A program made the translations under genes and the position numbers. Below the pieces are notes generated by a model. That model did not search any database, was not told the origin of the DNA, and saw only the letters and a program-made list of their open reading frames with translations. Shown here piece by piece: positions 5,517 through 22,251 of a DNA stretch of 35,574 nt (positions within the stretch are counted from its first letter, which is position 1; the number at the start of each line of letters is the position of its first letter). This DNA comes from a virus (lineage: Duplodnaviria; Heunggongvirae; Uroviricota; Caudoviricetes): the IMG/VR virus record IMGVR_UViG_2698536477_000007. One strand, given 5' to 3'.

Positions 5517-5531
5517 GTGATCATCATGCAC

Positions 5532-5766
5532 ACACAAAAAAACCGCTTGCCAGCGTTCGCCTGGTCGGGTTACAGTTTTCCCGCACCTCATAAAACGGGT
5601 GCCGGGTTTCGCAGCCTGCTGACAACCAAAGCGCACAACCGCGCCAGCGGTTTTTTTGTGCGTACTGTATTGCCACGTTTTTTTCGCGTCAGAATTATGG
5701 CGGGGCGTACGGGGCCGACTTCGGTCGGGCCGGGTTCTTTGGTTGCCGGTACTGCGAACCCCGTAC
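5532..5766 (+). other. Structured GC-rich non-coding element (candidate RNA leader or terminator-promoter module)
   Basis: Perfect 15-bp inverted repeat CACAAAAAAACCGCT (5532-5546) / AGCGGTTTTTTTGTG (5645-5659); hairpin plus T7 run at 5636-5656; 9-bp perfect stem CGTACGGGG (5705-5713) / CCCCGTACG (5758-5766) enclosing a cUUCGg tetraloop hairpin (5714-5727); ORFs overlap in all frames here. Confidence 0.35.
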
Positions 5767-5836
5767 GTCTCGCCACCCACAGTTTCGCAGCTCTGGATGG
5801 TGAGTTTTCAAAACTTACAACCAAAGAGGCCACACC

Positions 5837-6064
5837 ATGGCAAACCGCAAGCAACAGCGCGCCCGCGCTGAGCGTCTTCACATCCGCACCGAAATCAACC
5901 GCAGACTCTGGCGCGCATCACGCGTCGCGCAAATCATGCATATCAACATGCTGCATGAGCGCACGCACGCGCTATCAAACCGTTACTGCGCTGCTGTCTT
6001 CAGCTATCTCGCCGAAGATATGGCAGAACTGCAAAGCCTCATCAACCAGCAACACCACCACTAA
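5837..6064 (+). CDS. Hypothetical small basic protein, 75 aa
   Basis: AAAGAGG ribosome-binding site 8 nt upstream. Confidence 0.5.
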   Translation: MANRKQQRARAERLHIRTEINRRLWRASRVAQIMHINMLHERTHALSNRYCAAVFSYLAEDMAELQSLINQQHHH

Positions 6065-6131
6065 ACAACATCCTGAAGCCATCCCGCCCCGTGCGCGGGA
6101 GGCTTCCGCACGTCTGTTACCGGAGGTTCTC

Positions 6132-6548
6132 ATGAAGAGCGTTAAGGGACTTTCAGATATTCAGGACTTTTTTAACTGGATGTGGGCAGTGGATCCCCGG
6201 CTGGCTTCCCGCCTGAACGACTGGCACGACTATTACCGCCGCGCCTGTAAACGGGCCGCCAGACGCGTCACCACATACGGGGATTTCTCCTTCACCGTTG
6301 ACGACCGTTACCGCGTGGACGTGAAAGGTGATGGTGATGGTTTTGGTTTATTTCACATCAACGGAACCGACAGCACCGCCATCAGCTGGTCGTCGTCAGA
6401 GATGACGCTTGTTCTGGAAATGACAAACCACAGCGTGGCCGTGAAAGGTATATACACCGCAGAAGACTTTATCGGTGAATACCAGCGCCTTCTCGTGCTG
6501 TACCGGGCAGCGTTTCAGGCGGCAACTGCCGGGGAGTGCGACGCATGA
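6132..6548 (+). CDS. Hypothetical protein, 139 aa, immediately upstream of A
   Basis: GGAGG ribosome-binding site 7 nt upstream of ATG 6132; stop overlaps A start (ATGA at 6545-6548); the 5' part of the 343-aa track ORF is judged non-coding. Confidence 0.6.
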   Translation: MKSVKGLSDIQDFFNWMWAVDPRLASRLNDWHDYYRRACKRAARRVTTYGDFSFTVDDRYRVDVKGDGDGFGLFHINGTDSTAISWSSSEMTLVLEMTNHSVAVKGIYTAEDFIGEYQRLLVLYRAAFQAATAGECDA

Positions 6549-9064
6549 GCGACCATAACGCACAACTGGCGTACCCGTGGAACGCCCCGCTGCCGGTTAT
6601 CGATCCTGAAACGTTCGGCAGAGCGCAACCAACCGCATTACGCCAGGCCATTCAGAGCTACATCAACGAAGACATTCGCACTGACGCCAGACTGGATGAA
6701 GAAACCGTCGCCTTCCTGACAACCACAGACGAAGGGAAGCGAATTAATTCGCATCTTCATCACGACGAAGAGCGTCGGATCAGACTGGAAAAACTGACGC
6801 GACACAAACGCGAAAATCCACCCACACTGGTATCTGAAGCCATGGCGGAGCTGCGCGCCCTGCCGCCGTTTCTTGCCGGTCCGCTCATCCGGGACCTGGC
6901 ACGCCTGAGCCGCAAACAGGAGAGCGCACGCCGGGAAGGGCTTAAGAACAACAGCGCATACGCGGCGGATAACTTCGTTCGTCACGGGCTGCGTGCCCGC
7001 CTGAAACGTATCGCCCGTGTGAATGAACGCTTTGCCACCCCGGCCTTTAAGGCCACCGCCGCGCGCGAACGGCTGGATGAACTGCTTATGCTGCCGCAGC
7101 TGAGCCGTGACGAAATCCAGCGCCTTGCCACCCTGACCGCCACCGCGTTTTCCACCGCACTGGAGCGCGCATGTGATGAGGTCATCGAAAAGACCGGCAG
7201 GGGTGACGATGACCTGCTCACCTGGTTACTGACCTACCAGCCACTGGCACACATGGCGTTAAAACTGGGTATCACGCCACCCTGCTGGCCGTCGCTGGAA
7301 ATCAGGCCCGACCGCCGCACCGCCCCCGACCCGGAACAGGTGCCGGGTGCGGTCATGCGCCTTTCCTGTGCGACATGGTGGAACAGTCAGTTAAGACACC
7401 TCCGGGACATCTGGCGTGAAGAACTGTTACGCGCCGCAGGTCTGGTGTCACGTAAGACATCGGTATATATCAGCCATGAAGCGTTACTGGACTGGCGCGA
7501 AAAACGCCAGCGCACCCGCGATTTTCTGAAGGCCTGGGACATCGAGAACGAAGAGGGAGAACGGTTCAGCCTTGAGGATATCTACTGGGCAGGTCTCTCT
7601 AATCCGCGTAACCGCCGTAACGAGATGATGGCCTGCGTCCGGGGGATGGAGCAGGTCGCCGAAGCACGCGGCGACGTGGCGTTTTTCGTCACCGTCACAG
7701 CCCCTTCCCGTTTTCACAGCGTGAACGATGACGGCAGTCTGAACCCGAAATACTGCGGGGCAACGGTACGTGATGCCAGTGATTATCTGGTTTACCGCTT
7801 TTTCGCCGCCGTCCGCAAGGCCATCAACAAGGCCGGGCTGGGCTGGTACGGCGTGCGCACCGTGGAGCCCCACCACGACGGTACACCGCACTGGCACATG
7901 CTGGTATTCACCAGCCCGGAAAACGAAGCCCGTATCACTGAAATCATGCGCAACGCCGCCATCAGGGAGGACCGCGCAGAGCTGGGTGATGATATATCCC
8001 CGCGTTTTAAATGCGAAAAAATCGACCCGGCAAAAGGCACACCGGCAAGCTATATCGCGACCTATATCGGTAAGAACCTGGACGCCAGCGCCTTCATGGG
8101 GAATGACCCGAAAACCGGCAAACCTTACGTCGATAAGGAATCAGGCAAAACCATGGCCGAAACCGTGGAGAACGCCATCGGCTGGGCGGCCCTTCACCGC
8201 ATCCGCCAGTTCCAGTTCTTCGGTATCCCGCCCCGCCAGGTATGGCGCGAACTCCGCCGCCTTGCCGGGCAGATGGCCCGTAACCCGACTGCCCCGCAGC
8301 GTCTGGACCATGACGACATTGACGCCATACTGGCCGCCGCCGACGTGGGATGTTTTGCCACCTATATCACCCGCCAGGGTGGTGTGCTCATTCCCCGCAA
8401 CACGTACCTGGTCCGCACCGCATACGAAACTGCCGAAGAGGCCAACGACTACGGCGAATTCCCGCAACGCATTTACGGCGTCCGCGCCCCGTCACTCGGG
8501 GAGCGCTACACCATATGCACCCACCCGGACACCTGGAAACTGGTCAGACGTAAGCCGGAAAACGAAGACCGCACGGACGAGGGTTTTGACGTTGAGTGCG
8601 GCTTTGCCGCACCTTGGACTCGTGGCAATAACTGTCCCCCTGACCAGAATCTGACCATAAACGACCCGCCAGAAAGGCAGCCGGACGGACGCAGGGAGCA
8701 GCGACTTACCCTGCCGGAAGGTGATTTGGGTGAATGGTTAAGGTCACTGACCCCTACAGAGCGAAAACAACTCACCAGGCAGCTGAAAAACCCGCCACCT
8801 GACACGGAAACCGTGAAAAACGGCGGCATCAGTGCGCCCGCTGGCGGCGTTCGCGTGAGTGTCGCACTGACCGCTGAGCCACACATCACCGCACAAATCA
8901 CCCGCGAGCTTGATGCGCTGGGCGTGCAGCTGCATGAAAGCGCCGTCGTTTCCGTCCGTCACGGTGCCCGCGTGCGCCTGGCTGACGGACGCACCGCGTA
9001 CTGGAATGACAGCACCCGCCGCATTGATATCACCCCCGCACCGAATACGGAGGCGCCACAATGA
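6545..9064 (+). CDS. A: Rolling-circle replication initiation endonuclease, P2 gpA / 186 RepA family
   Basis: 839 aa; contains ...GTPHWHMLVF... (HUH-type metal-binding motif of P2 A-like initiators); large early gene in the expected position. Confidence 0.88.
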   Translation: MSDHNAQLAYPWNAPLPVIDPETFGRAQPTALRQAIQSYINEDIRTDARLDEETVAFLTTTDEGKRINSHLHHDEERRIRLEKLTRHKRENPPTLVSEAMAELRALPPFLAGPLIRDLARLSRKQESARREGLKNNSAYAADNFVRHGLRARLKRIARVNERFATPAFKATAARERLDELLMLPQLSRDEIQRLATLTATAFSTALERACDEVIEKTGRGDDDLLTWLLTYQPLAHMALKLGITPPCWPSLEIRPDRRTAPDPEQVPGAVMRLSCATWWNSQLRHLRDIWREELLRAAGLVSRKTSVYISHEALLDWREKRQRTRDFLKAWDIENEEGERFSLEDIYWAGLSNPRNRRNEMMACVRGMEQVAEARGDVAFFVTVTAPSRFHSVNDDGSLNPKYCGATVRDASDYLVYRFFAAVRKAINKAGLGWYGVRTVEPHHDGTPHWHMLVFTSPENEARITEIMRNAAIREDRAELGDDISPRFKCEKIDPAKGTPASYIATYIGKNLDASAFMGNDPKTGKPYVDKESGKTMAETVENAIGWAALHRIRQFQFFGIPPRQVWRELRRLAGQMARNPTAPQRLDHDDIDAILAAADVGCFATYITRQGGVLIPRNTYLVRTAYETAEEANDYGEFPQRIYGVRAPSLGERYTICTHPDTWKLVRRKPENEDRTDEGFDVECGFAAPWTRGNNCPPDQNLTINDPPERQPDGRREQRLTLPEGDLGEWLRSLTPTERKQLTRQLKNPPPDTETVKNGGISAPAGGVRVSVALTAEPHITAQITRELDALGVQLHESAVVSVRHGARVRLADGRTAYWNDSTRRIDITPAPNTEAPQ

Positions 9065-9465
9065 CCCGCTTTTATTGCGCCATGCAGCGACAGCGTTTTG
9101 ACGAACTGATGCGCCAGCGCACGCCCTTACTGACCCTGAACAACATTGCCACGGGGCCACAACCTGGCGATGAGCTGGAAATCACGGTCGTCAGTCCCGA
9201 TCGCACCACCACGGCCATCATCACCGACATACTCAACGGACGACCGGACAGCACTAACCGCAGTTGGCTTGTCGCCGTTCGTCCGCGCCGTCCGCCCGGG
9301 GAGCCGGAGCCGCTCACGCCTGCCGGAAAAATCATGCGGCAGTACCACGAAGAGCAGGCACACAAACACAACGCAGAACTCACCAGAACACTGGCATCGA
9401 TTAACCGAAAAGCGGCAATTGCCCGCTATGTGCATTCGGCCGCCAACAGGCAATCACGCAGGTAA
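9061..9465 (+). CDS. Hypothetical protein, 134 aa
   Basis: ATGA overlap with A stop (9061-9064). Confidence 0.5.
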   Translation: MTRFYCAMQRQRFDELMRQRTPLLTLNNIATGPQPGDELEITVVSPDRTTTAIITDILNGRPDSTNRSWLVAVRPRRPPGEPEPLTPAGKIMRQYHEEQAHKHNAELTRTLASINRKAAIARYVHSAANRQSRR

Positions 9466-9512
9466 CAAAGACCATGAACATAACCAGAAACAGCAAACTG
9501 AAGGAGCACACC

Positions 9513-9668
9513 ATGAACGACATCAGGAGGATCAGCGACAAAGACCTGAAGAAAATGATTGAGTCGGCACAGCAGCTGCTTTCACGACAAAACCCGGTCG
9601 TGGAAGAAACGTGGTGGGAGAATTTACTTGCAGCACTGACCGAACTCCGGGAGCGCCGTCAGCAGTAA
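9513..9668 (+). CDS. Hypothetical small protein, about 51 aa
   Basis: AAGGAG ribosome-binding site 7 nt upstream of ATG 9513; in-frame part of ORF 9474..9668. Confidence 0.4.
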   Translation: MNDIRRISDKDLKKMIESAQQLLSRQNPVVEETWWENLLAALTELRERRQQ

Positions 9669-9741
9669 GGCTGCGCTGGCGCGCCTGATTTTTTCACCGC
9701 AACGCAATTTATTCGCCTGGCACACAAAGGAGAACACCACA

Positions 9742-9906
9742 ATGAACGAACTGTTTATCGCCGTTAAGGGCGCGCTGATTTTTACCATTGCATGGATTGC
9801 TTTAATGGCATTCCTGACGTGGGAAAACCCGTTTCGCCACTTCACAGCAGGCTTTATCGCCAGAATTTATGCGGCAACCGTTGCGGTTATCTGGTTGCTC
9901 TCGTGA
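9742..9906 (+). CDS. Small membrane protein, 54 aa (MNELFIAVKGALIFTIAWIALMAFLTWENPFRHFTAGFIARIYAATVAVIWLLS)
   Basis: AAGGAG ribosome-binding site; two hydrophobic helices; below ORF-track cutoff. Confidence 0.45.
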   Translation: MNELFIAVKGALIFTIAWIALMAFLTWENPFRHFTAGFIARIYAATVAVIWLLS

Positions 9907-10093
9907 CTGAAAGGAAAAAACGTGTGAAAAGAAGACAACTAAAAAAATACAACCCCATGAAATTGAGCAGCATAAAAAAGCGAACATTTAGTACAGACAG
10001 CACAAAAGTTATAAAGATCACTTTTATAGCTTTTGCTGTCTATATAGTAAATGAGATGTGGTAAAAGTTAGTCACTAACCACAAGGAAGAGAT

Positions 10094-10312
10094 ATGCCAA
10101 CACTTATTGGGAAAGTACTACGCCGATACACGGATGCGGTAGCATCACATGTTGATACAAATCTGGAGCAAACAGCAAAATACCGACTTACCGTTGATGC
10201 AAACGGTAATGCGACCCTGAACATTGACAACCCTGAAGTCAAAGCCGACATCATTCGGAAGATGAAATATCTCCAACAGATACATAACCGCACAAATAAG
10301 GATGTTGCTTAA
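10094..10312 (+). CDS. Hypothetical protein, 72 aa, in AT-rich segment
   Basis: AAGGAAG ribosome-binding site 7 nt upstream; preceded by about 190 bp of AT-rich promoter-like sequence. Confidence 0.5.
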   Translation: MPTLIGKVLRRYTDAVASHVDTNLEQTAKYRLTVDANGNATLNIDNPEVKADIIRKMKYLQQIHNRTNKDVA

Positions 10313-10371
10313 TGGCACCACTCATCATCATTTGCAAAGAAAAGCGCCAGCCGCATTCCGTTAAGAGAGCT

Positions 10372-10402
10372 GGTGAGTCGGGGCAAAAATTCTTTTTGCC
10401 CC
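10372..10402. other. Candidate cos site region with adjacent perfect 10-bp stem hairpin
   Basis: GGTGAGTCGGGGCAAAAAT (10372-10390) matches 13 of 19 positions of the P2 cohesive end as I recall it (GGCGAGGCGGGGAAAGCAC); hairpin GGGGCAAAAA-TTC-TTTTTGCCCC at 10380-10402; position downstream of Q-like gene fits P2. Confidence 0.4.
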
Positions 10403-10429
10403 GGCGAAGCAGCAGACAAGCGAAGCGCG

Positions 10430-10693
10430 TCAGGAACGCCGCGACAGAAGTTCAAGCGCATACCGGCGATCTTCCGGGCGCATGGCATCCACCAGGAACT
10501 TCACCATATTGCGACAGGAGCGGGCACCGGGGCTGAGGGTATGGGAAAAGGTCATCGTACAGACGAAGGTGTGCCCGCATTCGACATCACTGCATGCACA
10601 GTAAAGATCCGCAAGTTCAAGGGTTTTCCAGTCTGTCTTCCGGATGACAGCAGGTGCGCCACAGTCCGGACACCGGGCTTTAAAAATCCGCAT
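10430..10693 (-). CDS. ogr: Ogr/Delta-family zinc-finger late transcription activator, 87 aa
   Basis: MRIFKARCPDCGAPAVIRKTDWKTLELADLYCACSDVECGHTF gives C-x2-C-x22-C-x4-C spacing as in P2 Ogr; GGGAGGT ribosome-binding site before ATG 10693. Confidence 0.75.
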   Translation of the reverse strand: MRIFKARCPDCGAPAVIRKTDWKTLELADLYCACSDVECGHTFVCTMTFSHTLSPGARSCRNMVKFLVDAMRPEDRRYALELLSRRS

Positions 10694-10730
10694 CTTACCT
10701 CCCGATAACACGTATCCCGGGGAGGACATT

Positions 10731-11783
10731 TTACCCGACCGGCACCGCTTTTTCTTCCGCCACATGCCCGGCATCCACATCAAAACAAAGATAAAGGTGT
10801 TCCGGTATATCGGGATCGCTGTTCACGGCGTTCATGATTTTACGCTGAAGCGGTATCACCTCATCCTTGCGGTACGTTTCACGCGTCGTCTCCGGGTTAG
10901 GGATGGTGGCCCCGTTCGTGGGGATGATCCCCGCAAGACCGGCAGGAAAACGGTGTGCCGTAAACACATCCTGGGCACTGATCCCCTTGATGTTTGAAAA
11001 TTCATCCTTGGCGCTCACCTCACCAATCGGAATAATTTTCACCCCATCCGGCGAACCTTTGGGGATGTTGATGTACAGATTGCGGAAGTTTCCCAGCCCC
11101 TTAGACTCCGCCACCTTCTCGCGGATCTCATCCTCCATCTCCGTAGTGATCCCCGGGTCGTTCGTATACAGCAAAAACCCCATATGCGCCCCGTTGTTGT
11201 AGTAACGGCGACGAAAAAGGCTGGCCTCGCTGTTCAGCAGCGCCGAGTGAATGCCACCGATATAATCCGGCAGCCCGTAAATTTGCTGACGCGGATCATA
11301 CATCCGCAGAAAGATAATATCTTCCGGCGTATAGACCAGCGCGGGGCCTTCCTGAAGCACCACGAACTCACCGGTTTTGCGGCGCCGGAGATACAGCGAC
11401 GGAAGCGGCTCAAGTGCCACGACGTCGCCGAATACGTTACGCACCTTGAGCAGGGCGAGATCGCCGAACAACAGGTAGTCAAATACCGCCTGTTCCATCT
11501 GGTCCGTTGTGAGACCACCACCGGTATAGCCCCCCGCCACCATGTTACGGCGGGCATACAGCACCCCACCATGCTGGGCGTTAAGGTTCGGGAGCTGCGC
11601 CAGTGCCAGGCGGTTAATCGGCAGCTGCCAGTGGTTGTGTTCGTTGTCATACCAGATGTTATGGTAGTCCGTGCCGGTGGTCAGCACCGGTTCCGGCTGG
11701 CCAAAGGTGATTGTGCTGCCACGTGCGGGCGTGAATGCTTTTTTCGTCACGCGTGACGTTTTGTTTCTGCGTTTCTTGCTCAT
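10731..11783 (-). CDS. Q: Portal protein, P2 gpQ family
   Basis: MSKKRRNK... start; conserved ...LFRRRYYNNGAHMGF... and ...GVKIIPIGEVSAKDEFSNIKG... match P2 Q from recall; ATGA overlap with P stop. Confidence 0.9.
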   Translation of the reverse strand: MSKKRRNKTSRVTKKAFTPARGSTITFGQPEPVLTTGTDYHNIWYDNEHNHWQLPINRLALAQLPNLNAQHGGVLYARRNMVAGGYTGGGLTTDQMEQAVFDYLLFGDLALLKVRNVFGDVVALEPLPSLYLRRRKTGEFVVLQEGPALVYTPEDIIFLRMYDPRQQIYGLPDYIGGIHSALLNSEASLFRRRYYNNGAHMGFLLYTNDPGITTEMEDEIREKVAESKGLGNFRNLYINIPKGSPDGVKIIPIGEVSAKDEFSNIKGISAQDVFTAHRFPAGLAGIIPTNGATIPNPETTRETYRKDEVIPLQRKIMNAVNSDPDIPEHLYLCFDVDAGHVAEEKAVPVG

Positions 11784-13585
11784 GCGGCTTTCCCGAAGGC
11801 CCATGTGGACGGGCGTTCATAGTCATAATCTACAGGCTCATTAATCACGGCGTGCGAAATGGCAAAAAACACATCCGCATGCCCCGTAACATCCGACCGT
11901 TCCGCCACGAACGTCAGCGCGTTACCGCTTTTTGTGGTGGTGCGGCGTATGGACATGAACGACGCGGGGATCTCCGTGCGTTCACGGCTGGCCTCATCAA
12001 TGGCGTCTTTCGCCCACTCGATACGCTTATGGGCCACCACGTCTATCATTTTCATCACCAGGCGGTTTTTGCTCTCCACGCTGTAAAGAATGGCGTTAGC
12101 CTCACGTGGCGCAAAGCGACTGACGATATCAAACACCCCTTTCCCGATACCGGTGATATCTATGCCGATATAGGTAATGTTAAAGCGCTGCATCAGTTCG
12201 CGGATCTGATCGGCCTGCCAGGTGAAGTTAAACCCCTGCCACTGCCAGACGGCGAGCACACGGAACCGCTCGCCTTCATGGACAGGCGGAGCCACAATTA
12301 CAAACGTGGAATTATCCCCGGACCTTGACGGGTCAAAGCCCGCCCACACCTCACGATTGCCGAACGGACGTGCCGCCGTGGGATCGTAGTCACCCCACGT
12401 CTCCATCTCCACCTCGCACCTGACCAGTTCGGAGAACTTAAATACCGCATCCTTGCTGTCAACAAACTCGCAGCCGTACAGCATCGCATAGGTGGTCGGG
12501 TTGTAGAGGTTCCTGATACGTTCAATATCAACCCGTGCAGACAGGCCACCCGCCACCGCCTCTTCCAGCCGGATAATGTAGCGCCAGATCCCGTCAGGGC
12601 ATTCACAGCCCACACGCATCGCGCTTTCTTTCGGAAACTCAACAGCACGACGCGTCGGGTCATCCCCGCGCCAGTCGTCACCGTTCCAGACCAGATAAGC
12701 CTGGTGGGTTTTGGCGCTGGGTGTGGAAAAATACGTCGTGCGGTATTTGTCGTGGGTCGCCATTGCCGAGGCCACTTCATGCAGTCGCGTGAATTTTGGG
12801 ATCCAGAACACCTCATCGCCGTAAAGGTGGCCGTTAAATCCCTGGGCGGTACTGGCATTGGTGGACAGGAAGCGCAGCATTGCACCATTGCTCAGACGGA
12901 TATGCTTACCCGTGAGCGTGATCCCGAACTGCTGGGCGAAATCAATAATATATTCACGGAAGATTTCCGCCTGTACCCGTGACGCAGAAAAGAAAATCTG
13001 GTTATCACCGGTCACCACCGCATCTTCGAACGCCTCCCATGCAAAATACCAGGTCATGCCGATCTGGCGGCTCTTGAGGATGAAACGGCGCTCACGGTGC
13101 CGGTTCTCGCGGCAGTGCAGCTGGTAGGCATAAAGATTTTTACGCGCCCATTCATCCAGCATTTCAGCAGTCAGTCCGGAAACGTCGTTTTTCCGGTAGC
13201 GCCGCTTTTTCCCTTCTCCCCCGCCGCAGGTCCCCGCAGCCGCGCCGTCCTCATACCCTGCCGGACGCAGGGCGGAAATTTCCGCCATCCTTTCAGCGTG
13301 TTTGTTTTTCTGGGCGATGATCTTCACGTGCTGTGCGATAAGTTCACGCAGTTCGGCAAGTTCACACTCTGTCTTGCCCTCCCGTCCGGTCAGCACATCA
13401 ATACGCCGGGCGATCACGTCCTCAACGGATTCGGCGGGCAGCAGGGCGGCCCACTGCCCCACATCACACCAGTGGTAAACCGTGCGCGGCGGAATACCGA
13501 GTTCCGCCGCAATATCGCGGGGGTGCCACCGCTTCAGGTAAAGCGATCGCGCCGCCTCTTTGATTTCGTCAGAATATTTAGCCAT
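11780..13585 (-). CDS. P: Terminase large (ATPase) subunit, P2 gpP family
   Basis: About 601 aa, co-oriented with Q and divergent from O as in P2; start 13585 (MAKYSDE) or 13606 ambiguous. Confidence 0.88.
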   Translation of the reverse strand: MAKYSDEIKEAARSLYLKRWHPRDIAAELGIPPRTVYHWCDVGQWAALLPAESVEDVIARRIDVLTGREGKTECELAELRELIAQHVKIIAQKNKHAERMAEISALRPAGYEDGAAAGTCGGGEGKKRRYRKNDVSGLTAEMLDEWARKNLYAYQLHCRENRHRERRFILKSRQIGMTWYFAWEAFEDAVVTGDNQIFFSASRVQAEIFREYIIDFAQQFGITLTGKHIRLSNGAMLRFLSTNASTAQGFNGHLYGDEVFWIPKFTRLHEVASAMATHDKYRTTYFSTPSAKTHQAYLVWNGDDWRGDDPTRRAVEFPKESAMRVGCECPDGIWRYIIRLEEAVAGGLSARVDIERIRNLYNPTTYAMLYGCEFVDSKDAVFKFSELVRCEVEMETWGDYDPTAARPFGNREVWAGFDPSRSGDNSTFVIVAPPVHEGERFRVLAVWQWQGFNFTWQADQIRELMQRFNITYIGIDITGIGKGVFDIVSRFAPREANAILYSVESKNRLVMKMIDVVAHKRIEWAKDAIDEASRERTEIPASFMSIRRTTTKSGNALTFVAERSDVTGHADVFFAISHAVINEPVDYDYERPSTWAFGKAA

Positions 13586-14812: not shown

Positions 14813-15832
14813 ATGCAACTGAACCAGAAAACCGAATCACTGCTTCGTAAGTACGCTGCCGGGCTGGGCGCGGCAAACGGGGTTGACGACGTCACACGCT
14901 ATTTTGCGCTGTCTGACCCGAAGGAGACCGCGCTGCGTGACGCCATCATGCACTCCGACGAGTTTTTATCAAAACTGCCGAACGTGCTGGATGTTGAACA
15001 GGTGACAGGCCAGGTGGTCACCACCGGCACGCCGGGCCTCCACACCGGACGTAAAAAGGACGGACGCTTCACCATTCAGCTGGGTGTTACCGGGAATGAA
15101 TACAAGCTGGCTGAAACCGATTCCGGCGCCCACCTCCTGTACACCACACTGGTCACCTGGGCGAACGCAGGAAGTGAAAACGAGTTCTTTAACCGCATTC
15201 AGAATTTTGTTAACAGACAGATCGCGCTGGATATCCTGCGCATCGCCTTTAACGGTACCAGCGTGGCCGAAAATACTGACCCGGTAACCAACAAAAACGG
15301 CGAGGACGTCAACACCGGCTGGCATGCCATCGTCAAAGCCCGAAGCGCAAAACAGATCGTGGAGGCTGGCCCGACGCTGGGCAAGGGTGGCGACTTTATC
15401 GGGCTGGATGCAGCCGTGGCAGATCTCGTGCACACCCTCATTGATGAGTCGTATCGTGGTCATCCGGATCTGGTGGTACTGGTAGCCCCCGATCTTGTGG
15501 CACAGGACAAGGTGACGCTGCTTAACGCCATCGACGCCCCCACCGAAAAAGTGGCCGCACAGCTTATCGGTCGCCAGATCGCCGGACTGACGGCATACAC
15601 CCCGCCGTTTATGCCGGAAGGCCGTCTGATTGTCACCACGCTGGCGAACCTTCACATCTACACGCAGCGCGGTACCCGTCAGCGCCGTGCAGAGTGGAAC
15701 GACGATCGCAAGCGTTTCGAAAACAACTATCTGCGCATGGAAGGTTACGCCGTGGAGCACGACGAAATTTACGCGGCCTACGACAAACTGACCATCAAGG
15801 GCGCAGAAGCCGTACCGGGCGTCGGCGGCTGA
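14813..15832 (+). CDS. N: Major capsid protein, P2 gpN family
   Basis: 339 aa; ...GKGGDFIGLDAAVADL...HPDLVVLVAPDLVAQDK... parallels P2 N ...GKGGDYASLDALVMDA...DPDLVVIVGRQLLADK... Confidence 0.9.
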   Translation: MQLNQKTESLLRKYAAGLGAANGVDDVTRYFALSDPKETALRDAIMHSDEFLSKLPNVLDVEQVTGQVVTTGTPGLHTGRKKDGRFTIQLGVTGNEYKLAETDSGAHLLYTTLVTWANAGSENEFFNRIQNFVNRQIALDILRIAFNGTSVAENTDPVTNKNGEDVNTGWHAIVKARSAKQIVEAGPTLGKGGDFIGLDAAVADLVHTLIDESYRGHPDLVVLVAPDLVAQDKVTLLNAIDAPTEKVAAQLIGRQIAGLTAYTPPFMPEGRLIVTTLANLHIYTQRGTRQRRAEWNDDRKRFENNYLRMEGYAVEHDEIYAAYDKLTIKGAEAVPGVGG

Positions 15833-15849
15833 GGACGGAGGGCGGCGCA

Positions 15850-16536
15850 ATGACACCCTGCCAGCGGCACCGGGCGAAAATCCGCACACAGGAGGCACTC
15901 GAACGCCGGGAGGCGCTAACGGCCTCCCCGGTCAGCTTCCACCTGTTACGCGCGGAGCTTGATCGCGATGTGGCACGGCTGCGCAGTCTTCCGGTCCGCG
16001 AAGAGCGGCTGGCGTTCAAGCGCGACATTCTCCTGCCGCGCTGGCTGCCCGTCGCGGAGCGCTATATCGCTGACGGAAAGCGCCACGCCTGCCCGGTACT
16101 GGTGTACTGCATCATCTGGCTGTTCGACACGGGCGACCTGAGTCGCGCCCTTGACTGGGCAGACATTGCCATCAGTGAAGGCCAGGCAACACCGGACAAC
16201 TTCCGCAGCACCCTGCCCGCCTTCGTGGCAGACACGGTGCTGCAGTGGGCCACCGACAACAGCGAGGCCGGACACAGCATAGAGCCGTATTTTTCGCGCA
16301 CCTTCAGGAACGTCACCACCTCGTGGCGGCTGCATGAGGAAATCCGCGCGAAGTGGTTCAGATTTGCCGGGCTGTATCTTCTGCGCGACGAGGCGGGCAA
16401 ACCGAGAGCCACCGCGATTAATGATACTGCCGTACTGGAAAAGGCAGACGCATACCTGGCACAGGCGGCAGCACTGAGCCGTACCGCTGGCGTAAAAAGT
16501 ATCAGGGCACGCATCAGCGCCCTTAATGCAGCGTAA
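15850..16536 (+). CDS. M: Terminase small/endonuclease subunit, P2 gpM family
   Basis: ATG 15850; ...LPRWLPVAERYIADGK...LFDTGDLSRALDWADIAI... parallels P2 M ...LPFWLPWVNGVLELGK...RLDTGDIAGALEIARYAL... Confidence 0.85.
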   Translation: MTPCQRHRAKIRTQEALERREALTASPVSFHLLRAELDRDVARLRSLPVREERLAFKRDILLPRWLPVAERYIADGKRHACPVLVYCIIWLFDTGDLSRALDWADIAISEGQATPDNFRSTLPAFVADTVLQWATDNSEAGHSIEPYFSRTFRNVTTSWRLHEEIRAKWFRFAGLYLLRDEAGKPRATAINDTAVLEKADAYLAQAAALSRTAGVKSIRARISALNAA

Positions 16537-16643
16537 ACGACTACCCGCAGGGCCGGGCGGGCGCGGGAGGAGGCATCAGTGACGGAAACTGTATGGCCGT
16601 GGAATCCCGGACAGCCCGCCTTTTTATTCATATGAGGCACGTC

Positions 16644-17117
16644 ATGAGCGAACCGAGCTTCAGCGTCAGCGGTAAACCGCTGAAATCCACACCGCAGACG
16701 GTGACAAACGGCGAGCCGTTCTGGCCGGACCTTGATCTGGCTGAGCTTCAGGGGTCACGCACGCTTCCGGCTGATTTACCCGACGACACGGCGGCCATGG
16801 CGCTGCTTGCCGCAGTGGCCGAGGTGAACACCACGCTGGCGCCGGTTGTGGCGCACTGGAAGGCGCAGGGGCATGAACGCGCCGCAGACGTACCGGGGGC
16901 CAGGCTGGGCGATGAAACCCAGCTGGTCGCACAGTACAAAAAGGCCGTTTATGCCCGTGCCAAGGCCGATCTTATGGGCGAGTTCGCCACCATTGGTCGC
17001 CGTGAAACCTATCCGGGGCAGGAAAGCGAGGACACACGCGCCACCTTACTGGCTGAAGCCTCGCTGGTCATGCGTAACATGCTGGGGCACAGACGCGCGG
17101 GAGTGCACATCATATGA
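16644..17117 (+). CDS. L: Head completion/stabilisation protein, P2 gpL-like
   Basis: Position after M and size match P2 L; start 16644 (GAGG 6 nt upstream) or 16632. Confidence 0.7.
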   Translation: MSEPSFSVSGKPLKSTPQTVTNGEPFWPDLDLAELQGSRTLPADLPDDTAAMALLAAVAEVNTTLAPVVAHWKAQGHERAADVPGARLGDETQLVAQYKKAVYARAKADLMGEFATIGRRETYPGQESEDTRATLLAEASLVMRNMLGHRRAGVHII

Positions 17118-17587
17118 ACCAGCTGGAAAGCCTGACCGCCTTCATTACCGAAAATCTGCCGTCTGACGCCATGCAGTTCTTCATGAGCAGTCAGGAAGAC
17201 GCGCAACTTATCCGAAGTCAGAAGGCACTGGGTAACGACCAGATCCGCATGGGCGTGATGACGTACACCGGCGTGATTGCATGGGATAACTTCCCGTTCC
17301 GCAAATACTCACCGGGGCTGGTTTACGCGCTGGTCATGGCCTGGCTGGAAGAGCACGCGGACCCGCTGAGGGAGGAATTCCGCCCGGAGGATGTGAACGT
17401 CGACCCGCAGTTTAACGATGAGGACTCGTGCCTTCTCGATATCACGGTGGGACTGGCTGACCCGCTGATCATCCGGGTGCAGAAGGACGGCCCCGTTCCG
17501 TACAGGGGGAAACGCTGGACACTGGTTAACCCTGAAATCTGGACGGCGGAAACCATGGATCTGTTTGTCAGCAGGAGCCGCGAATGA
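17114..17587 (+). CDS. Putative tail completion protein (gpR-like), 157 aa
   Basis: ATGA overlap with L stop; size and position; family assignment tentative. Confidence 0.5.
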   Translation: MNQLESLTAFITENLPSDAMQFFMSSQEDAQLIRSQKALGNDQIRMGVMTYTGVIAWDNFPFRKYSPGLVYALVMAWLEEHADPLREEFRPEDVNVDPQFNDEDSCLLDITVGLADPLIIRVQKDGPVPYRGKRWTLVNPEIWTAETMDLFVSRSRE

Positions 17588-18294
17588 TAAGCGGCCAGCT
17601 GAACCCGCAGCAGCTGGCAGAAGCGCAGGCGATGCTTCAGTCGCTGGATCTGCCCCCGAAAAAACGCCGTCGCCTGTTATGGCGTATTGCCCGGCACGGC
17701 ATTATCGCCGCAGCCAGACGCCATCAGCGCGATCAGACCGCGCCGGACGGCACAGCATGGGCACCCCGGAAACGCGGCAAGGGGAAAATGTTCAGAAAGC
17801 TGCCGCGTCTTCTGGCGGTCCGTGAGATGCCCGGACAGGATGCCGTAAAGGTTTATTTCCGTAACGGCAATCACACCAGTGGCAGGAGCCGCATCAGTGC
17901 CGGTGCCGTGGGCTGGGTTCACCACAACGGCGCAGAAATCCGGGTCAGTGCTGACAGCTTCAGCGGTCAGGACCAGAGCGGGCAGACCGCCACCCGCCGA
18001 CAGGCAAAACGACTGCGGGAGCTGGGCTTTAAGGTACGTCAGAAGGGGCGCTGGCGGAAAGCATCCATGAAATACCTGTTAACGCTTTCGCGGGCGCAGG
18101 CCGGGTTGCTGATCACCGTTATGGAGGATCAGATTATCGCCGGACCACGTCAGCAGAAGGCCAGGACATGGACCATTACCCTTCCGTCGCGCGTCTTTCT
18201 GGGGGTAACAAACGAAGAGTTTTCACACATCCTGGCACGCCAGATGAACGCAATGGGCTACGGCCTGGACGTTGACGCACAGGATATCAGATAA
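17584..18294 (+). CDS. Putative virion morphogenesis / tail completion protein (gpS-like), 236 aa
   Basis: AGGAG ribosome-binding site; overlaps previous stop; basic protein in the tail-completion position. Confidence 0.5.
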   Translation: MISGQLNPQQLAEAQAMLQSLDLPPKKRRRLLWRIARHGIIAAARRHQRDQTAPDGTAWAPRKRGKGKMFRKLPRLLAVREMPGQDAVKVYFRNGNHTSGRSRISAGAVGWVHHNGAEIRVSADSFSGQDQSGQTATRRQAKRLRELGFKVRQKGRWRKASMKYLLTLSRAQAGLLITVMEDQIIAGPRQQKARTWTITLPSRVFLGVTNEEFSHILARQMNAMGYGLDVDAQDIR

Positions 18295-18305
18295 GGAGTC
18301 ACACC

Positions 18306-19451
18306 GTGAGCTGGCCGAATGTAACCGTAAGCCATCAGAACCGTTTCAACGGTGCCACCCGTGAAGTGGAGCGCACGCTGCTTTTTGTGGGCTATGGCAA
18401 AAAGAACACAGGTAACACCCTTTCCGTCTCCCCTGAGACCGACCTGGACGACGTGCTGGGACCGGATGAAAGCCTGCTTAAATCCACGCTTACCGCCGCA
18501 ATCGCCAACGGTGGCCAAAACTGGTTTGCCTATGTTCACGTTCTGTCTGAACCCAAACCCCCGACACCGGAGGGCGGCGACGCTAACGCCGCATGGGTGG
18601 ACGCGGTGAAAAAAGCGCAGACCATTGCTTCTGCCGAAGGCGTGGTGATTGCCATTGACATCACGGCTAAAGATGCCGTTAACCGCGCCACCGAAACCCG
18701 CGCCCTGCTTCAGTCCGCTTATGGCCGTTTTGTCTGGTTCATGCTGTGCGTGGCCGGACCGGGCAGGGATGAGGCATGGGCGGCATACGTCACCCGCATC
18801 AGTGCCATACAGGACGGCGTGGCAGCACCTGGCGTGATGGTGGTTCCCCGCTTATGGGGAAATGAGCCCGGCGTACTGGCGGGCCGTCTCTGTAATCCTT
18901 CTGTCACCGTTGCGGACAGCCCGGCACGCGTGGCAACCGGTGCTCTGGTGGCGATGGGTAACGATGAGATCCCGCAGGACGGCAAGAAACAGCCCCTTGA
19001 GCTGGCCACGCTACGCTCGCTGGAAGGCAAACGCTTCAGCGTGCCCATGTGGTATCACGATTTCGACGGGCTCTACTGGTCAGACGGACGCACCCTTGAT
19101 GTGGAGGGGGGCGATTACCAGGTCATCGAAAACGTGCGCGTGGTGGATAAGGTCTCCCGCCGTGTACGTCTGCGTGCCATTGCCCGCCTTGCGGATCGCG
19201 CGCTCAACAGCACACCGGGCAGCATTGCCGCCAGCCAGACATATTTCAGCCGCACGCTGCGTGAAATGGCGCTCGCCACAGAGATTAACGGCGTACCGTT
19301 CCCCGGCGAGGTTAAACCGCCACAGGACGGGGATATCACCATCGTCTGGACCAGCAGTACACACGTGCAGATTTACATTGTGGTACGCCCCTACGAGAGC
19401 GCAAAAGCCATTGGCGTAAGTATTGAACTCGACACAGCACTGGAGATCTGA
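18306..19451 (+). CDS. Tail sheath protein (non-P2-FI type), 381 aa
   Basis: GTG start with AAGGAG 8 nt upstream; large protein immediately preceding a tube-sized gene. Confidence 0.65.
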   Translation: MSWPNVTVSHQNRFNGATREVERTLLFVGYGKKNTGNTLSVSPETDLDDVLGPDESLLKSTLTAAIANGGQNWFAYVHVLSEPKPPTPEGGDANAAWVDAVKKAQTIASAEGVVIAIDITAKDAVNRATETRALLQSAYGRFVWFMLCVAGPGRDEAWAAYVTRISAIQDGVAAPGVMVVPRLWGNEPGVLAGRLCNPSVTVADSPARVATGALVAMGNDEIPQDGKKQPLELATLRSLEGKRFSVPMWYHDFDGLYWSDGRTLDVEGGDYQVIENVRVVDKVSRRVRLRAIARLADRALNSTPGSIAASQTYFSRTLREMALATEINGVPFPGEVKPPQDGDITIVWTSSTHVQIYIVVRPYESAKAIGVSIELDTALEI

Positions 19452-19452
19452 C

Positions 19453-19914
19453 ATGGCCGGAAATGAACGTATCAGCGGCGGCGCGTTTGATATCAACTAC
19501 GACGGGATCATGATCCACGTGGAAAGCGCCACCGTCACCATCACCGACAACAGCGCCGTGGCACAGACGCGCGGTGTGCCGAACGGCTACACCCGTGGTT
19601 CTGTTTCTGCCGATGTGGAGGTGGAAGTCGACGCGCAGAACTTTAAAAAGTTTGGTGCTGTGGCCCGCTCTGCGGGGTCGTGGCGTGCCATTCCTGAAAA
19701 GGATTTTCTCTTTTATGCCAACAACGGCAGCGAGGAGGAAAAAATCGAGGTATTCGGCTGCGTCCCCATGTTGTCGGACGTGGTGAACATCAGCGCAGGC
19801 GAAGCCGGAAAGACCACGAAAAAAATCAAGTTCATGGTCACAAGCCCGGACTTTATCAACATTGACGGCGTGCCCTACCTGTCAGCCCGTGACACCCGCG
19901 ATCTGAAGGGGTGA
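19453..19914 (+). CDS. Tail tube protein, 153 aa
   Basis: ATG 19453 two nt after sheath stop; size and position typical of a contractile-tail tube protein. Confidence 0.6.
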   Translation: MAGNERISGGAFDINYDGIMIHVESATVTITDNSAVAQTRGVPNGYTRGSVSADVEVEVDAQNFKKFGAVARSAGSWRAIPEKDFLFYANNGSEEEKIEVFGCVPMLSDVVNISAGEAGKTTKKIKFMVTSPDFINIDGVPYLSARDTRDLKG

Positions 19915-19918
19915 TGCC

Positions 19919-20224
19919 ATGCCGGACGGTCAGACTTCACTCCTGGCAAAACTGATTATCATCGGTGCTGCCATCGGGCTGGGGCGTCTCATGGTGAGCC
20001 GCGATCGCATCACAGCCCGTCTGCTTATCGGGCGAATGATTATGGGCTCTGCCGTGGCACCGGTTGCCGCCATTCCGCTGTTTAAATTTCCGGACATGCC
20101 GGAGCTGGTTGTGGTCGGTCTGGCGTGCGCGCTGGGCATTATGGGCAGCGCCTTTATTGAAGAATGCTTTTGCCGTCTGGCAGACCGCTACCTGAAGCAG
20201 AAGGAACGCAGAAATGACCCATAA
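19919..20224 (+). CDS. Putative holin, three transmembrane helices, 101 aa
   Basis: Three hydrophobic segments and a charged C-terminus (RLADRYLKQKERRNDP); in same operon as endolysin and spanins. Confidence 0.5.
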   Translation: MPDGQTSLLAKLIIIGAAIGLGRLMVSRDRITARLLIGRMIMGSAVAPVAAIPLFKFPDMPELVVVGLACALGIMGSAFIEECFCRLADRYLKQKERRNDP

Positions 20225-20966
20225 GCCTTACATTTCGCCTTCCCTGAGCCTGTATCACGCGCAGGCGCATGACGTTCTGCGGATGCTGCCGGAAAACAGT
20301 GTGGACGCGCTCATCACAGACCCGCCATACAGTTCAGGTGCCACACACAAGGCGGGGCGGACATGCCAGGGCAGCCACGCCAAATACATCAACGATGAAG
20401 ATCTTCACCGCTTTGAAGGCTTCGAAGGCGAGAACATGGACGCCCGTTCATGGGAATACTGGACGCATCTGTGGATGACACAGGCATGGCGCACGGTACG
20501 ACCCGGTGGTTACGCCCTGGTCTTCACCGACTGGCGGCAGTTGCCCGCGCTGACGGACGCATTCCAGGCCGCCGGCTTTACCTGGCGGGGGATCGTGGCA
20601 TGGAACAAGGGACGGGCCTCAAGAACACCGCATACCGGTTATTTTCGTCACCAGTGCGAATATGTGGTCTGGGGCAGTAAAGGCGCGCTGGGCAAATCCC
20701 CTTCCGGGCCGTTCGACGGCTGCACCACGCACCACACACGCCCACAGGAGAAACAGCACCCGACAGGTAAACCGGAATCGTTGATGGATGAGCTTGTGCG
20801 CGTGTGTGAACCCGGAGGGCTGATCCTCGATCCGTTTATGGGGTCCGGCACCACGGGCGTGGCCGCCCTTCGCCGGGGCTGCCGTTTTACGGGTATTGAA
20901 CTGAACGCCCACTATTTCAGCGTGGCACAGGCGCGCCTTACGGGGACGGAACAGAGGAGTGACTGA
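20214..20966 (+). CDS. Orphan beta-class DNA amino-methyltransferase (N6-adenine or N4-cytosine)
   Basis: Motif IV DPPY (ALITDPPYSSG) near the N-terminus and motif I LILDPFMGSGTTGVAA near the C-terminus, the beta-class order; no restriction endonuclease gene adjacent. Confidence 0.85.
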   Translation: MTHKPYISPSLSLYHAQAHDVLRMLPENSVDALITDPPYSSGATHKAGRTCQGSHAKYINDEDLHRFEGFEGENMDARSWEYWTHLWMTQAWRTVRPGGYALVFTDWRQLPALTDAFQAAGFTWRGIVAWNKGRASRTPHTGYFRHQCEYVVWGSKGALGKSPSGPFDGCTTHHTRPQEKQHPTGKPESLMDELVRVCEPGGLILDPFMGSGTTGVAALRRGCRFTGIELNAHYFSVAQARLTGTEQRSD

Positions 20967-21304
20967 TGAAACTGAGCGAAAAACAACAGCTGTTTGCCGT
21001 CATGATTGCCGACCTTATTCACTGGGCGCAGGAGCACGGCTATCGCCTGACCTTCGGTGAGGCATACCGCACGCCGGAGCAGGCAGCACTAAATGCGAAA
21101 ACCGGAAAAGGCATCCGCAACAGCCTTCACACCCTGCGCCTCGCGGTGGACTTCAACCTGTTTATTAACGGCGAATACCAGACCGACACCGACGCCTACA
21201 GGCCGCTGGGGGAATACTGGGAATCCATCGGCGGCACATGGGGCGGGCGCTTCAGTCGGGCGGACGGCAATCATTTCAGCCTTGAGCACAACGGGATGAA
21301 ATGA
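20966..21304 (+). CDS. Endolysin, peptidase M15 (Zn-dependent peptidoglycan peptidase) family
   Basis: 112 aa; H-x6-D motif (SLHTLRLAVDF) and downstream DGNHFSLEH histidines as in M15 peptidases; ATGA overlap with methyltransferase stop. Confidence 0.8.
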   Translation: MKLSEKQQLFAVMIADLIHWAQEHGYRLTFGEAYRTPEQAALNAKTGKGIRNSLHTLRLAVDFNLFINGEYQTDTDAYRPLGEYWESIGGTWGGRFSRADGNHFSLEHNGMK

Positions 21305-21687
21305 TGAAACAGCTGGCGGGCTGCCTGGTGCTCCTCTTTGCCGCCATGTGGGCGGGCTGGCTGGCCCATGACTGGCATGACGCCAGGGTGGCGCTTGCCG
21401 AACAGGAAGCCATGGAAGCCACGCGACGTGCGGTGACAGAAGCCGGGCAGCAGTCCGCCCGCATACTGGAAAAACGGCTGGAGGCGTTAAAGGGCAATGA
21501 AATTCACACTGAACGCGTTATTCACACGGAAACCGTCCGCCCGGTATTCCGCAATGTGTGCGCTACTGATGATTACGTCCGGCTGTTCAACGCCCGTGCT
21601 GAAGCCGCTGAGCGTACCCTGGCAGGAAAACCAGCTGACGGAATGCCCGAAGACACTGCCGAGACTGGCAGGCCCGACGGGCGCTGA
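21301..21687 (+). CDS. i-spanin (Rz-like)
   Basis: N-terminal transmembrane helix (LAGCLVLLFAAMWAGWLA) followed by charged coiled-coil-like region; directly downstream of endolysin. Confidence 0.7.
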   Translation: MMKQLAGCLVLLFAAMWAGWLAHDWHDARVALAEQEAMEATRRAVTEAGQQSARILEKRLEALKGNEIHTERVIHTETVRPVFRNVCATDDYVRLFNARAEAAERTLAGKPADGMPEDTAETGRPDGR

Positions 21688-21790
21688 TTTTGATGCGGCA
21701 CTGCGAACCCTCACGAGCCGCTACACCGAATGTGCCGCCAGGCATAACAGCCTGGTGGAAACCATACGAAACACGGAGAAACTGCAATGA
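21497..21790 (+). CDS. o-spanin (Rz1-like outer-membrane lipoprotein), +1 frame overlapping i-spanin
   Basis: Lipobox MITSGC followed by Pro-rich mature region; overlaps 3' end of i-spanin and extends past it; start 21497 or internal 21554. Confidence 0.65.
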   Translation: MKFTLNALFTRKPSARYSAMCALLMITSGCSTPVLKPLSVPWQENQLTECPKTLPRLAGPTGADFDAALRTLTSRYTECAARHNSLVETIRNTEKLQ

Positions 21791-22062
21791 CCACGAAGAA
21801 CACCGGCACCATCATCCTGTCCGTTGCGGGCGTAACCCTGAGCTTTGAACCGAACAAAACGGCATTTAACAACCTCATCAACGAAATCACGATGACCAAC
21901 AAGGTGGCGCCGATGAGCACCTATCTTAACCGCATCGTGACGCCTGCCAGCCGCGACGCACTGGCTGACCTGATTGCGCGTTATCCGGGCTGTGAGATGC
22001 AGATCGTCGAGAAGATTAACGAGGTTTACTCCCCGAAACTGGAGATTGAGTTAAAAAACTGA
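21787..22062 (+). CDS. Tail assembly chaperone (short product, P2 E-like role)
   Basis: 91-aa ORF immediately upstream of tape measure gene, ends at slippery heptamer. Confidence 0.7.
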   Translation: MTTKNTGTIILSVAGVTLSFEPNKTAFNNLINEITMTNKVAPMSTYLNRIVTPASRDALADLIARYPGCEMQIVEKINEVYSPKLEIELKN

Positions 22063-22250: not shown

Positions 22251-22251
22251 C

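Follow-up and report, generated by a model that had tools for sequence, protein, structure and literature searches.

The window analyzed here (IMG/VR record IMGVR_UViG_2698536477_000007, 35,574 nucleotides) is an Escherichia coli prophage of the P2 family (Peduoviridae), with P88-type phages (Xuanwuvirus) as its nearest relatives. This study concerns the interval between its replication gene A and cos, which carries four small open reading frames (ORFs) on the + strand, at positions 9061-9465 (134 amino acids, aa), 9474/9513-9668 (64/51 aa), 9742-9906 (54 aa), and 10094-10312 (72 aa), referred to below as ORF134, ORF51, ORF54, and ORF72. A preliminary description of this DNA had proposed that such small genes could constitute a minimal exclusion or toxin-type module. 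This proposal was not supported by our analysis, in which ORF134 emerged as a core gene, ORF51 as a semi-conserved gene, ORF54 as an ORFan, and ORF72 as the orphaned half of a cassette. The interval is not a single module; it is probably made up of the distal end of a rightward early/replication operon and a cos-proximal slot in which genes are swapped.

Occupancy was counted by blastn against 5,426 complete E. coli genomes (the A lineage being counted at no less than 80% of the gene). An identical copy (100%) of the 9000-10450 segment occurs in three of them. The features of the interval are as follows:

9061..9465, + strand: ORF134, phrog_14984 of unknown function (E 5e-67), GC 59.3%, isoelectric point 10.7, ratio of nonsynonymous to synonymous substitution rates (dN/dS) 0.09-0.41
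9513..9668, + strand: ORF51, phrog_14672 (E 8e-31), 38 of 5,426 genomes, dN/dS 0.08-0.54
9742..9906, + strand: ORF54, predicted small membrane protein with two hydrophobic segments, E. coli prophages only, 7 of 5,426 genomes
9924..9986, + strand: 5' stub of a displaced 187-aa gene (pseudogene remnant), from homology to L003; GC 33.8% for 9907-9986
9987..10093, + strand: putative leader/regulatory region of a two-gene cassette, with a palindrome and the blocks CACTTTT and TTGTCTA
10094..10312, + strand: ORF72, phrog_32583 (E 1e-42), GC 43%, dN/dS 0.20-0.32, orphaned first gene of the cassette
10312..10330, + strand: six-codon stub of the cassette partner (MAPLII), deletion junction 10330/10331

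Identification of the four small genes

The four ORFs are real genes. In the 100% identical prophage of NZ_CP067426, RefSeq/PGAP calls exactly these four coding sequences, as hypothetical and with the same coordinates; each ORF is preceded by a Shine-Dalgarno (SD) motif, and dN/dS against relatives is below 1 for all four, indicative of purifying selection. Together, these data confirm the presence of four small genes at the positions originally given for them. Three of the four (ORF134, ORF51, and ORF72) also match PHROGs of unknown function strongly.

Scans of Pfam, PHROGs, NCBIfam, and PADLOC with the four ORFs returned only these unknown-function PHROGs and sub-threshold noise (WAV3_C, DUF6404, and Mop), and PADLOC-DB v2 yielded no match at E up to 1 for the four ORFs or for the cassette partner described below. 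Rfam, searched with 8500-11000 at E up to 1, yielded nothing beyond sub-gathering chance matches (gyrA RNA at the cos hairpin, mir-458 at the palindrome). No match to ORF134, ORF72, or ORF51 was found by tblastn among 50,697 phage records, P2 included (ORF54 was not part of this search), which indicates that no isolated phage carries these three genes. The earlier remark that none of the genes resembles Old or Tin holds, since tblastn (three ORFs), phmmer (ORF54), PADLOC, and Pfam were all blank in this respect.

ORF134, ORF51, and the probable distal end of the replication operon

The start codon of ORF134 (ATG 9061) overlaps the stop codon of A (TGA 9062-9064) by four nucleotides (ATGA). The ORF134 family comprises 36 protein clusters, E. 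coli in every case, which diverge down to about 52% identity and retain 28 invariant columns. ORF134 was found in 67 genomes, as compared with 62 carrying this A lineage, and, among the matches listed, every one that reaches the first base of the ORF abuts a replication endonuclease gene. As judged from these comparisons, ORF134 is a lineage-core gene, predicted to be translationally coupled to A, and not cargo. In its AF2 model (pLDDT 71), a small N-terminal domain rich in beta structure is followed by a basic C-terminal helix of 47 residues, a combination which suggests a nucleic-acid-binding accessory of the replication module. A search of PDB sequences with the ORF134 profile returned nothing.

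The second gene is most consistently read as 51 aa long. PGAP sometimes calls a 64-aa form from ATG 9474; however, an SD motif (AAGGAG) precedes ATG 9513 and none precedes ATG 9474, the phrog_14672 alignment begins at residue 14 of the 64-aa form, and an L050-type allele lacks 9450-9488, including the upstream ATG, its ORF51 overlapping the ORF134 stop codon. These observations rule out the 64-aa form and agree with the length of about 51 aa in the preliminary description. ORF51 is semi-conserved (38 genomes) and is predicted, on inspection of its sequence, to encode a protein that is small, soluble, and helical. An overlapping MarR/Ren-like gene comes after it in other relatives. In two sister prophages (L004, 3682-4008; L006, 4525-4863), the MarR-family gene after ORF51 encodes 108-112 aa and matches the PHROG 'Ren-like exclusion protein' (E 6e-29). 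A candidate terminator hairpin after ORF51 (9660-9705) was rejected, as it folds no better than shuffled sequences (z +1.05).

ORF134 would be translated by coupling to A and would belong to the A lineage as orf91 belongs to P2 A, and ORF51 and ORF54, located on the same strand and equipped with their own ribosome-binding sites, would be produced together with A on infection or induction and not in the lysogen. Expression of ORF51 and ORF54 with A is proposed because no promoter or terminator is detectable between the genes; a crude scan found no consensus promoter or terminator between A and ORF51/ORF54, and no Rfam RNA separates them either.

Variability of the interval among relatives

The interval between gpA and gpQ/cos has been described as a hyper-variable accessory and defense hotspot of E. 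coli P2-like phages (Rousset et al., 2022, PMC9122126), and the same hotspot has been documented by Moura de Sousa et al. (2026, PMC13586616). We found at least seven gene arrangements bounded by near-identical A and Ogr flanks (numbers denote lengths in aa):

Arrangement 1: 134-51-54-72, the window
Arrangement 2: 134-51-54-72-268, the intact sister
Arrangement 3: 134-51-54-75, the second deletion allele
Arrangement 4: 134-51-54-187, L003
Arrangement 5: 134-51'-MarR/Ren-like
Arrangement 6: 143-55-75-DUF7446-...
Arrangement 7: 134-69-MarR-SSB-...

Both the literature and these arrangements on shared flanks are in line with the preliminary description, which placed a variable defense-gene hotspot at this locus, and the comparative alignment it had proposed reveals gene content that varies among relatives with near-identical flanks. 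Homology breakpoints within the interval are located at 9658, 9986/9987, 10330, and 10350-10368. Occupancy is nested, with 62 genomes for the A lineage, 67 for ORF134, 38 for ORF51, 7 for ORF54, and 10 for the ORF72 segment, and GC content drops in the same direction, from 60% in A and 59% in ORF134 to 52% in ORF51, 48.5% in ORF54, and 34%/32% in the scar, with 43% in ORF72. Variability is concentrated in the cos-proximal third of the interval, and cargo behavior is seen only from ORF54 onward (7-10 genomes). The preliminary description regarded conservation of the ORFs as core genes in all relatives as incompatible with its proposal; such conservation was found for ORF134 (67 genomes versus 62) and not for the cos-proximal cargo.

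ORF72 as the remnant of a two-gene cassette

Comparison with relatives indicates that ORF72 is not a self-contained tiny gene but the orphaned half of a two-gene cassette. In the intact sister L036, which has the same backbone, an ORF72 97% identical to that of the window is accompanied by a full 268-aa gene. Window positions 8900-10330 correspond to L036 3815-5237 and positions 10330-10800 to L036 6120-6590, an alignment gap that reveals a clean deletion of 882 bp in the window. The intact partner begins MAPLIITVILVCGF... in relatives, and the window keeps its first six codons. In all eight distinct places inspected, the exact window ORF72 is found with the partner absent; its sequence is present on 223 contigs and that of the intact sister on 80, and no second cassette copy occurs in the complete genomes with the window-type orphan allele (n = 3). 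The family of ORF72 itself is small, with only nine clusters among 5.8 billion proteins, from E. coli and Citrobacter. Without its effector, the cassette would be unable to work as a module in the window, where ORF72 most likely survives as a leftover, either neutral or with residual expression.

The segment preceding ORF72 (9907-10093) is AT-rich, as first described (32-34% GC against 55.5% for the whole window), and comparison with relatives indicates that it is largely a scar, composed of a gene stub and the cassette leader. Homology to L003 (NZ_CP148318) reaches 9986 and resumes at 10368, and the intact 187-aa coding sequence in L003 (WP_062857809) begins at the equivalent of 9924. The window retains about 20 codons of this gene, with the start codon changed from ATG to GTG and a 1-nucleotide indel after codon 10. 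A 90-aa ORF at 9792-10064 was rejected as a gene: its frame is that of this stub, continued into the cassette leader, and it lacks conservation in L036. On the other side of the junction, only 9987-10330 is homologous to L013, which is P88-like and has a different backbone.

The leader contains an imperfect palindrome with arms within about 9992-10044 (hairpin 9985-10055, folding free energy (dG) -26.2 kcal/mol, z -6.35), which may act as an operator or as an insulator or terminator, or may be the scar of a recombination. A LexA box and an Ogr-type TGT-N12-ACA site were ruled out in the palindrome by inspection of the sequence. The palindrome is kept in the E. coli cassette copies and not in those of Citrobacter or Chania. 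The promoter-like region that the preliminary description assigned to this segment was not supported by a scan for the sigma-70 consensus, which retrieved a single site, within ORF72 and at chance level, and none in the AT-rich segment or leader. Nevertheless, the blocks CACTTTT and TTGTCTA are kept upstream of the small gene in divergent copies of the cassette (E. coli, Citrobacter, and Chania).

The scars show a succession of events in which the 187-aa gene was overwritten, leaving its first ~20 codons, by a mobile two-gene cassette with its own leader (72 aa followed by an overlapping gene of ~268 aa); this cassette then lost its large gene through the 882-bp deletion seen in the alignment with L036.

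The predicted membrane protein ORF54

ORF54 is predicted to be a small inner-membrane protein. Its hydrophobic segments lie around residues 3-28 and 34-54 (Kyte-Doolittle above 1.6), in keeping with the two-helix membrane peptide of 54 aa noted in the preliminary description, and its start codon is preceded by a strong SD motif, AAAGGAGAA. The exact sequence is present on 728 contigs, and comparison with the L003 allele revealed no nonsynonymous and three synonymous changes. No family was found for ORF54 in Pfam, PHROG, NCBIfam, or PADLOC, the only match being a weak, sub-threshold one to DUF6404, and an exhaustive phmmer search of 1.84 billion representatives returned its own two clusters together with spurious matches to large hydrophobic proteins.

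Such a protein could by itself be functional cargo, that is, an inner-membrane superinfection-exclusion or membrane-perturbing peptide similar to Sie/Imm-type proteins or type I toxins, an explanation which we regard as unlikely. A length of 54 aa, two hydrophobic segments, a strong SD motif, and the lack of amino acid changes among alleles all fit it, as do its occurrence in only the variable portion of the hotspot (7 of 5,426 genomes) and its ORFan status, which is common among phage exclusion peptides. It is weakened by the lack of a family match, the Pfam models of Hok/Gef and other type I toxins included, by the lack of an antisense promoter or Rfam small RNA, and by the position of ORF54, co-oriented with the early operon and close behind it, which suggests expression in the lytic phase over expression in the lysogen. 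With regard to an antisense RNA, no relevant Rfam match (E up to 1) and no minus-strand promoter-like site in 8900-10800 were found, although such scans cannot prove a novel small RNA absent.

The intact cassette in relatives and its repeated decay

In every relative examined that carries an ORF72 homolog, this gene is followed by an overlapping or abutting gene encoding 258-272 aa. The overlap between the two genes is TAATG in P2-like copies from E. coli and Citrobacter; elsewhere a gap of about 3-13 nucleotides separates them. Homology links the small proteins of distant cassettes, which share the invariant motif D-x2-G-x4-N-x2-N-x2-V, and the partner belongs to phrog_3630, a family of unknown function with 122 clusters across Enterobacterales. 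The ~268-aa partner is predicted to contain 3-4 transmembrane helices and a cytoplasmic Sm/WYL-like C-terminal barrel; the family has no match in Pfam or PADLOC and no homology to any toxin-antitoxin (TA) or abortive infection (Abi) family. Intact pairs were located in the A-Q hotspots of P2-like prophages (E. coli, Citrobacter, and Chania), in lambdoid prophages, and on a Pantoea chromosome, and the pair (phrog_32583 plus phrog_3630) is, by these comparisons, conserved and mobile as a unit. Its neighbors in lambdoid prophages are Hok/Gef and Lit-like peptidase genes, or DinI/NinG. In one E. coli lambdoid prophage (L046, 2481-5010), the intact pair (72 and 263 aa) adjoins a Hok/Gef gene and a Peptidase_U49 (Lit-like) gene, forming a cluster of the toxin/abortive-infection type.

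The window allele is not the only decayed one. On the same backbone, a second and independent deletion allele (L048-L052, e.g., L050 3940-4350; 151 contigs) has lost the partner via different junctions, and its product is 75 aa long, with the C-terminus NKEIPADR (five residues replaced by eight). An additional upstream deletion of ~100 bp in this allele takes out the leader palindrome (compare window 9936-10041 and 10300-10331). Several truncated partner genes also appear in the cluster lists. Repeated loss would mean either that the large gene is costly, with only antidote-sparing deletions surviving, or that the small gene has a residual role. Taken together, these properties suggest that the intact cassette behaves as a prophage 'moron' of the toxin-antidote or abortive-infection type, in which the small upstream protein is likely a regulator or antidote of the membrane effector.

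On this basis, the orphan ORF72 could have been kept by selection as a stand-alone antidote against the effector of other prophages, i.e., as an anti-addiction or anti-defense gene derived from a decayed module, a possibility we consider quite unlikely. Two independent deletions removed the large gene and spared the small ORF with its SD motif, the orphan alleles occur on more contigs (223 and 151) than the intact sister (80), and related cassettes that are intact occur commonly in lambdoid prophages of E. coli, with a single variant of the partner on 466 contigs. In type II TA operons, a small upstream antitoxin gene overlapping a larger downstream toxin gene is the usual order, and the small-upstream/large-downstream order of the cassette matches it. 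However, chance can quite readily spare a small gene that borders a deletion, and if the large gene is toxic, only antidote-sparing deletions are viable, so that retention requires no present function. Moreover, the second allele has a changed C-terminus and no leader palindrome, no second cassette copy is present in the three complete genomes with the window-type orphan, and contig counts reflect the sampling of clones. The most far-reaching version, in which the pair of 72 and ~268 aa constitutes an undescribed prophage abortive-infection or addiction system and the twice-orphaned small protein is kept as an antidote disarming it in lambdoid prophages or new hosts, is a long shot.

Evaluation of the proposed module

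In the light of these data, it appears very unlikely that the small genes, especially ORF54 and ORF72, form a minimal active exclusion or toxin module expressed from its own promoter in the lysogen. Such a module would suit the location in a documented defense hotspot, the strong purifying selection on the two-segment membrane peptide ORF54, the separate leader of ORF72 with its conserved blocks, and the adjacency of the two genes in three backbone alleles. Against it stands their lack of linkage: ORF54 is found with the 187-aa gene (L003) or other genes (L005) in place of ORF72, homologs of ORF72 are found in P88-like, Citrobacter, Chania, lambdoid, and chromosomal contexts from which ORF54 is missing, and what constantly accompanies ORF72 is the ~268-aa gene, lost by deletion in the window. 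In addition, the searches described above identified no toxin or defense family, antisense RNA, or Rfam match, and no consensus promoter in the AT-rich segment. That the interval is junk, filled with chance ORFs or decaying pseudogenes devoid of function, is scarcely credible. The interval does hold scars (stubs 9924-9986 and 10312-10330), and none of the four ORFs has an assigned function, but all four have SD motifs and dN/dS below 1, PHROG or cluster conservation is strong, and ORF134 keeps its 28 invariant columns despite its divergence.

The explanation we favor, an operon end followed by a swap slot, also has points that weigh against it. The ORF54 protein is invariant across alleles and abundant (728 contigs), so it does something. 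Co-transcription of ORF51 and ORF54 with A relies on a crude promoter and terminator scan, and an internal promoter may be active in the lysogen. Both deletions left the small ORF of the cassette open, and ORF72 could still have a selected role. Finally, the functions proposed here are predictions, and no protein in the interval has a characterized homolog.

Flanking regions and the phage genome

The position of the interval between gene A and cos is supported by its flanks:

6536..9064, + strand: replication gene A, left flank, Pfam Phage_GPA (E 2.1e-107), phrog_91 (E 1e-237), GC 60.2%
10369..10413, no strand assigned: cos-proximal inverted repeat with a cos core-like 19-mer, 21-nucleotide arms, right boundary of the slot
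10430..10693, - strand: Ogr/Delta-type zinc-finger late activator, right flank, Pfam Ogr_Delta (E 3.5e-15) and RefSeq annotation
10731..11804, - strand: portal protein gpQ, a RefSeq phage portal protein in the identical prophage, Pfam Phage_portal in identical loci

RefSeq/PGAP labels gene A as a replication endonuclease in the identical prophage NZ_CP067426. The order of genes is gpA, the cos-like core, and then Ogr, portal, and terminase on the minus strand. The cos-like core (10372-10390) shares 13 of 19 positions with P2 cosL, and the inverted repeat that contains it folds strongly (dG -30 kcal/mol, z -5.95). Positions 10367-10435 are 92-94% identical to P88-type phages, where the block stands beside the portal gene; it is the sole part of the interval common to the window and P88-type phages, and a P88-type cos block is present in about 1,160 of the 5,426 genomes. 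The occurrence of a cosL-like 19-mer in a strong inverted repeat, within a block shared with P88, indicates that the location between gene A and cos in the preliminary description is correct, and the order of A, the cos-like core, and the Ogr, portal, and terminase genes points the same way.

The Ogr/Delta gene lies between cos and the portal gene, downstream of Q and on the same strand; in the annotated P2 record, the gap between cosL and Q is geneless. In P88-type relatives, the same A-cos slot holds ParM/StbA-like and StbB-like plasmid partition genes (P88 itself, L001, 5379-6654; L013, 2007-3282), a hint of plasmid maintenance for some integrating phages, or of another use. Directly upstream of A are a 'derepression protein' gene (5837-6064; Pfam Derepression, weak) and a 138-aa hypothetical gene (6133-6549), and a 343-aa mechanical ORF (5517-6548) spans a region in which annotators call other genes. 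In its early region and cos block, the window shows matches of 78-94% to P88, vB_EcoM-569R5, and phages like them, and the head and tail genes (14975-22271) are about 72% identical to those of the Salmonella phages SI7, SW3, and SW5. An early region of the P88 type, from E. coli phages, combined with head and tail genes resembling those of Salmonella phages indicates a mosaic genome.

Significance

For the window itself, the outcome is mostly deflationary, in that no active minimal toxin or exclusion module was demonstrated. The interval offers instead a worked example of turnover in the P2 gpA-cos hotspot, with a core gene apparently coupled to A and a gradient of conservation falling towards cos. 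The layered scars (gene stub, cassette leader, orphan small gene, and six-codon stub) record two successive replacement or deletion events. In a recent survey, under 1% (P4) to about 2% (P2) of pseudogenes resembled known defense genes, most pseudogenes were very small intergenic remnants, and a swap model was favored (Moura de Sousa et al., 2026, PMC13586616). The cassette described here has decayed twice independently and its decayed forms are widespread, which suggests that cassettes of unknown function may hide more decay than those annotated as defense. A practical lead lies outside the window, in the intact pair of 72 and 268 aa, a compact mobile candidate system found across Enterobacterales.

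Comparison with known systems

ORF54 resembles type I TA peptides (Hok/Gef, Ldr, Ibs, and TisB) and Sie/Imm proteins in being shorter than 60 aa, dominated by hydrophobic helices, and encoded in a prophage accessory region. It differs from them in having two hydrophobic segments rather than one, a strong SD motif, and a location within a putative operon.

The intact cassette is reminiscent of type II TA and two-gene Abi systems: its small upstream gene overlaps or abuts a larger downstream gene, it moves as a unit among unrelated prophage types and chromosomal sites, it stands beside Hok/Gef and Lit-like peptidase genes in one lambdoid context, and its large gene has been lost repeatedly and the small one kept. 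In contrast to those systems, the putative effector is a predicted multi-pass membrane protein with an Sm/WYL-like barrel that matches no PADLOC model; membership in this class also calls for two intact genes, and the window cassette lacks its effector.

In P2, the gpA-gpQ hotspot contains orf91, tin, and old. As in P2, the interval in the window is located between A and cos/portal and holds varied gene sets between near-identical flanks. Unlike in P2, the slot contains no defense system recognized by PADLOC, its genes are all co-oriented with A (in P2, tin and old run opposite to A and have a mapped promoter of their own), Ogr is located between cos and Q, and the slot includes a visibly decayed cassette. 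The ORFs of the window are also far smaller than the P2 proteins Tin (253 aa) and Old (586 aa).

P2 Orf91 is a DUF3850 protein (ASCH-like, PUA-like fold) with the PHROG label 'RNA-binding protein'. Like ORF134, it is encoded directly after A with a 4-nucleotide overlap (in P2, the last base of A is 30319 and the first of orf91 is 30316); ORF134 differs in its additional 47-residue basic C-terminal helix. Comparison of ORF134 with Orf91 by hhalign revealed no similarity (probability 0.1), a Pfam scan of 20 members of the ORF134 family gave no DUF3850 or ASCH match, and homology to Orf91 or to a 106-aa Citrobacter gene in the same position was rejected on the basis of negative hhalign and BLASTP results. 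The N-terminal beta domain of ORF134 is weakly ASCH-like, the fold evidence being below the level that establishes homology. ORF134 is the positional counterpart of orf91 and, on the modeled fold, possibly also a distant structural one.

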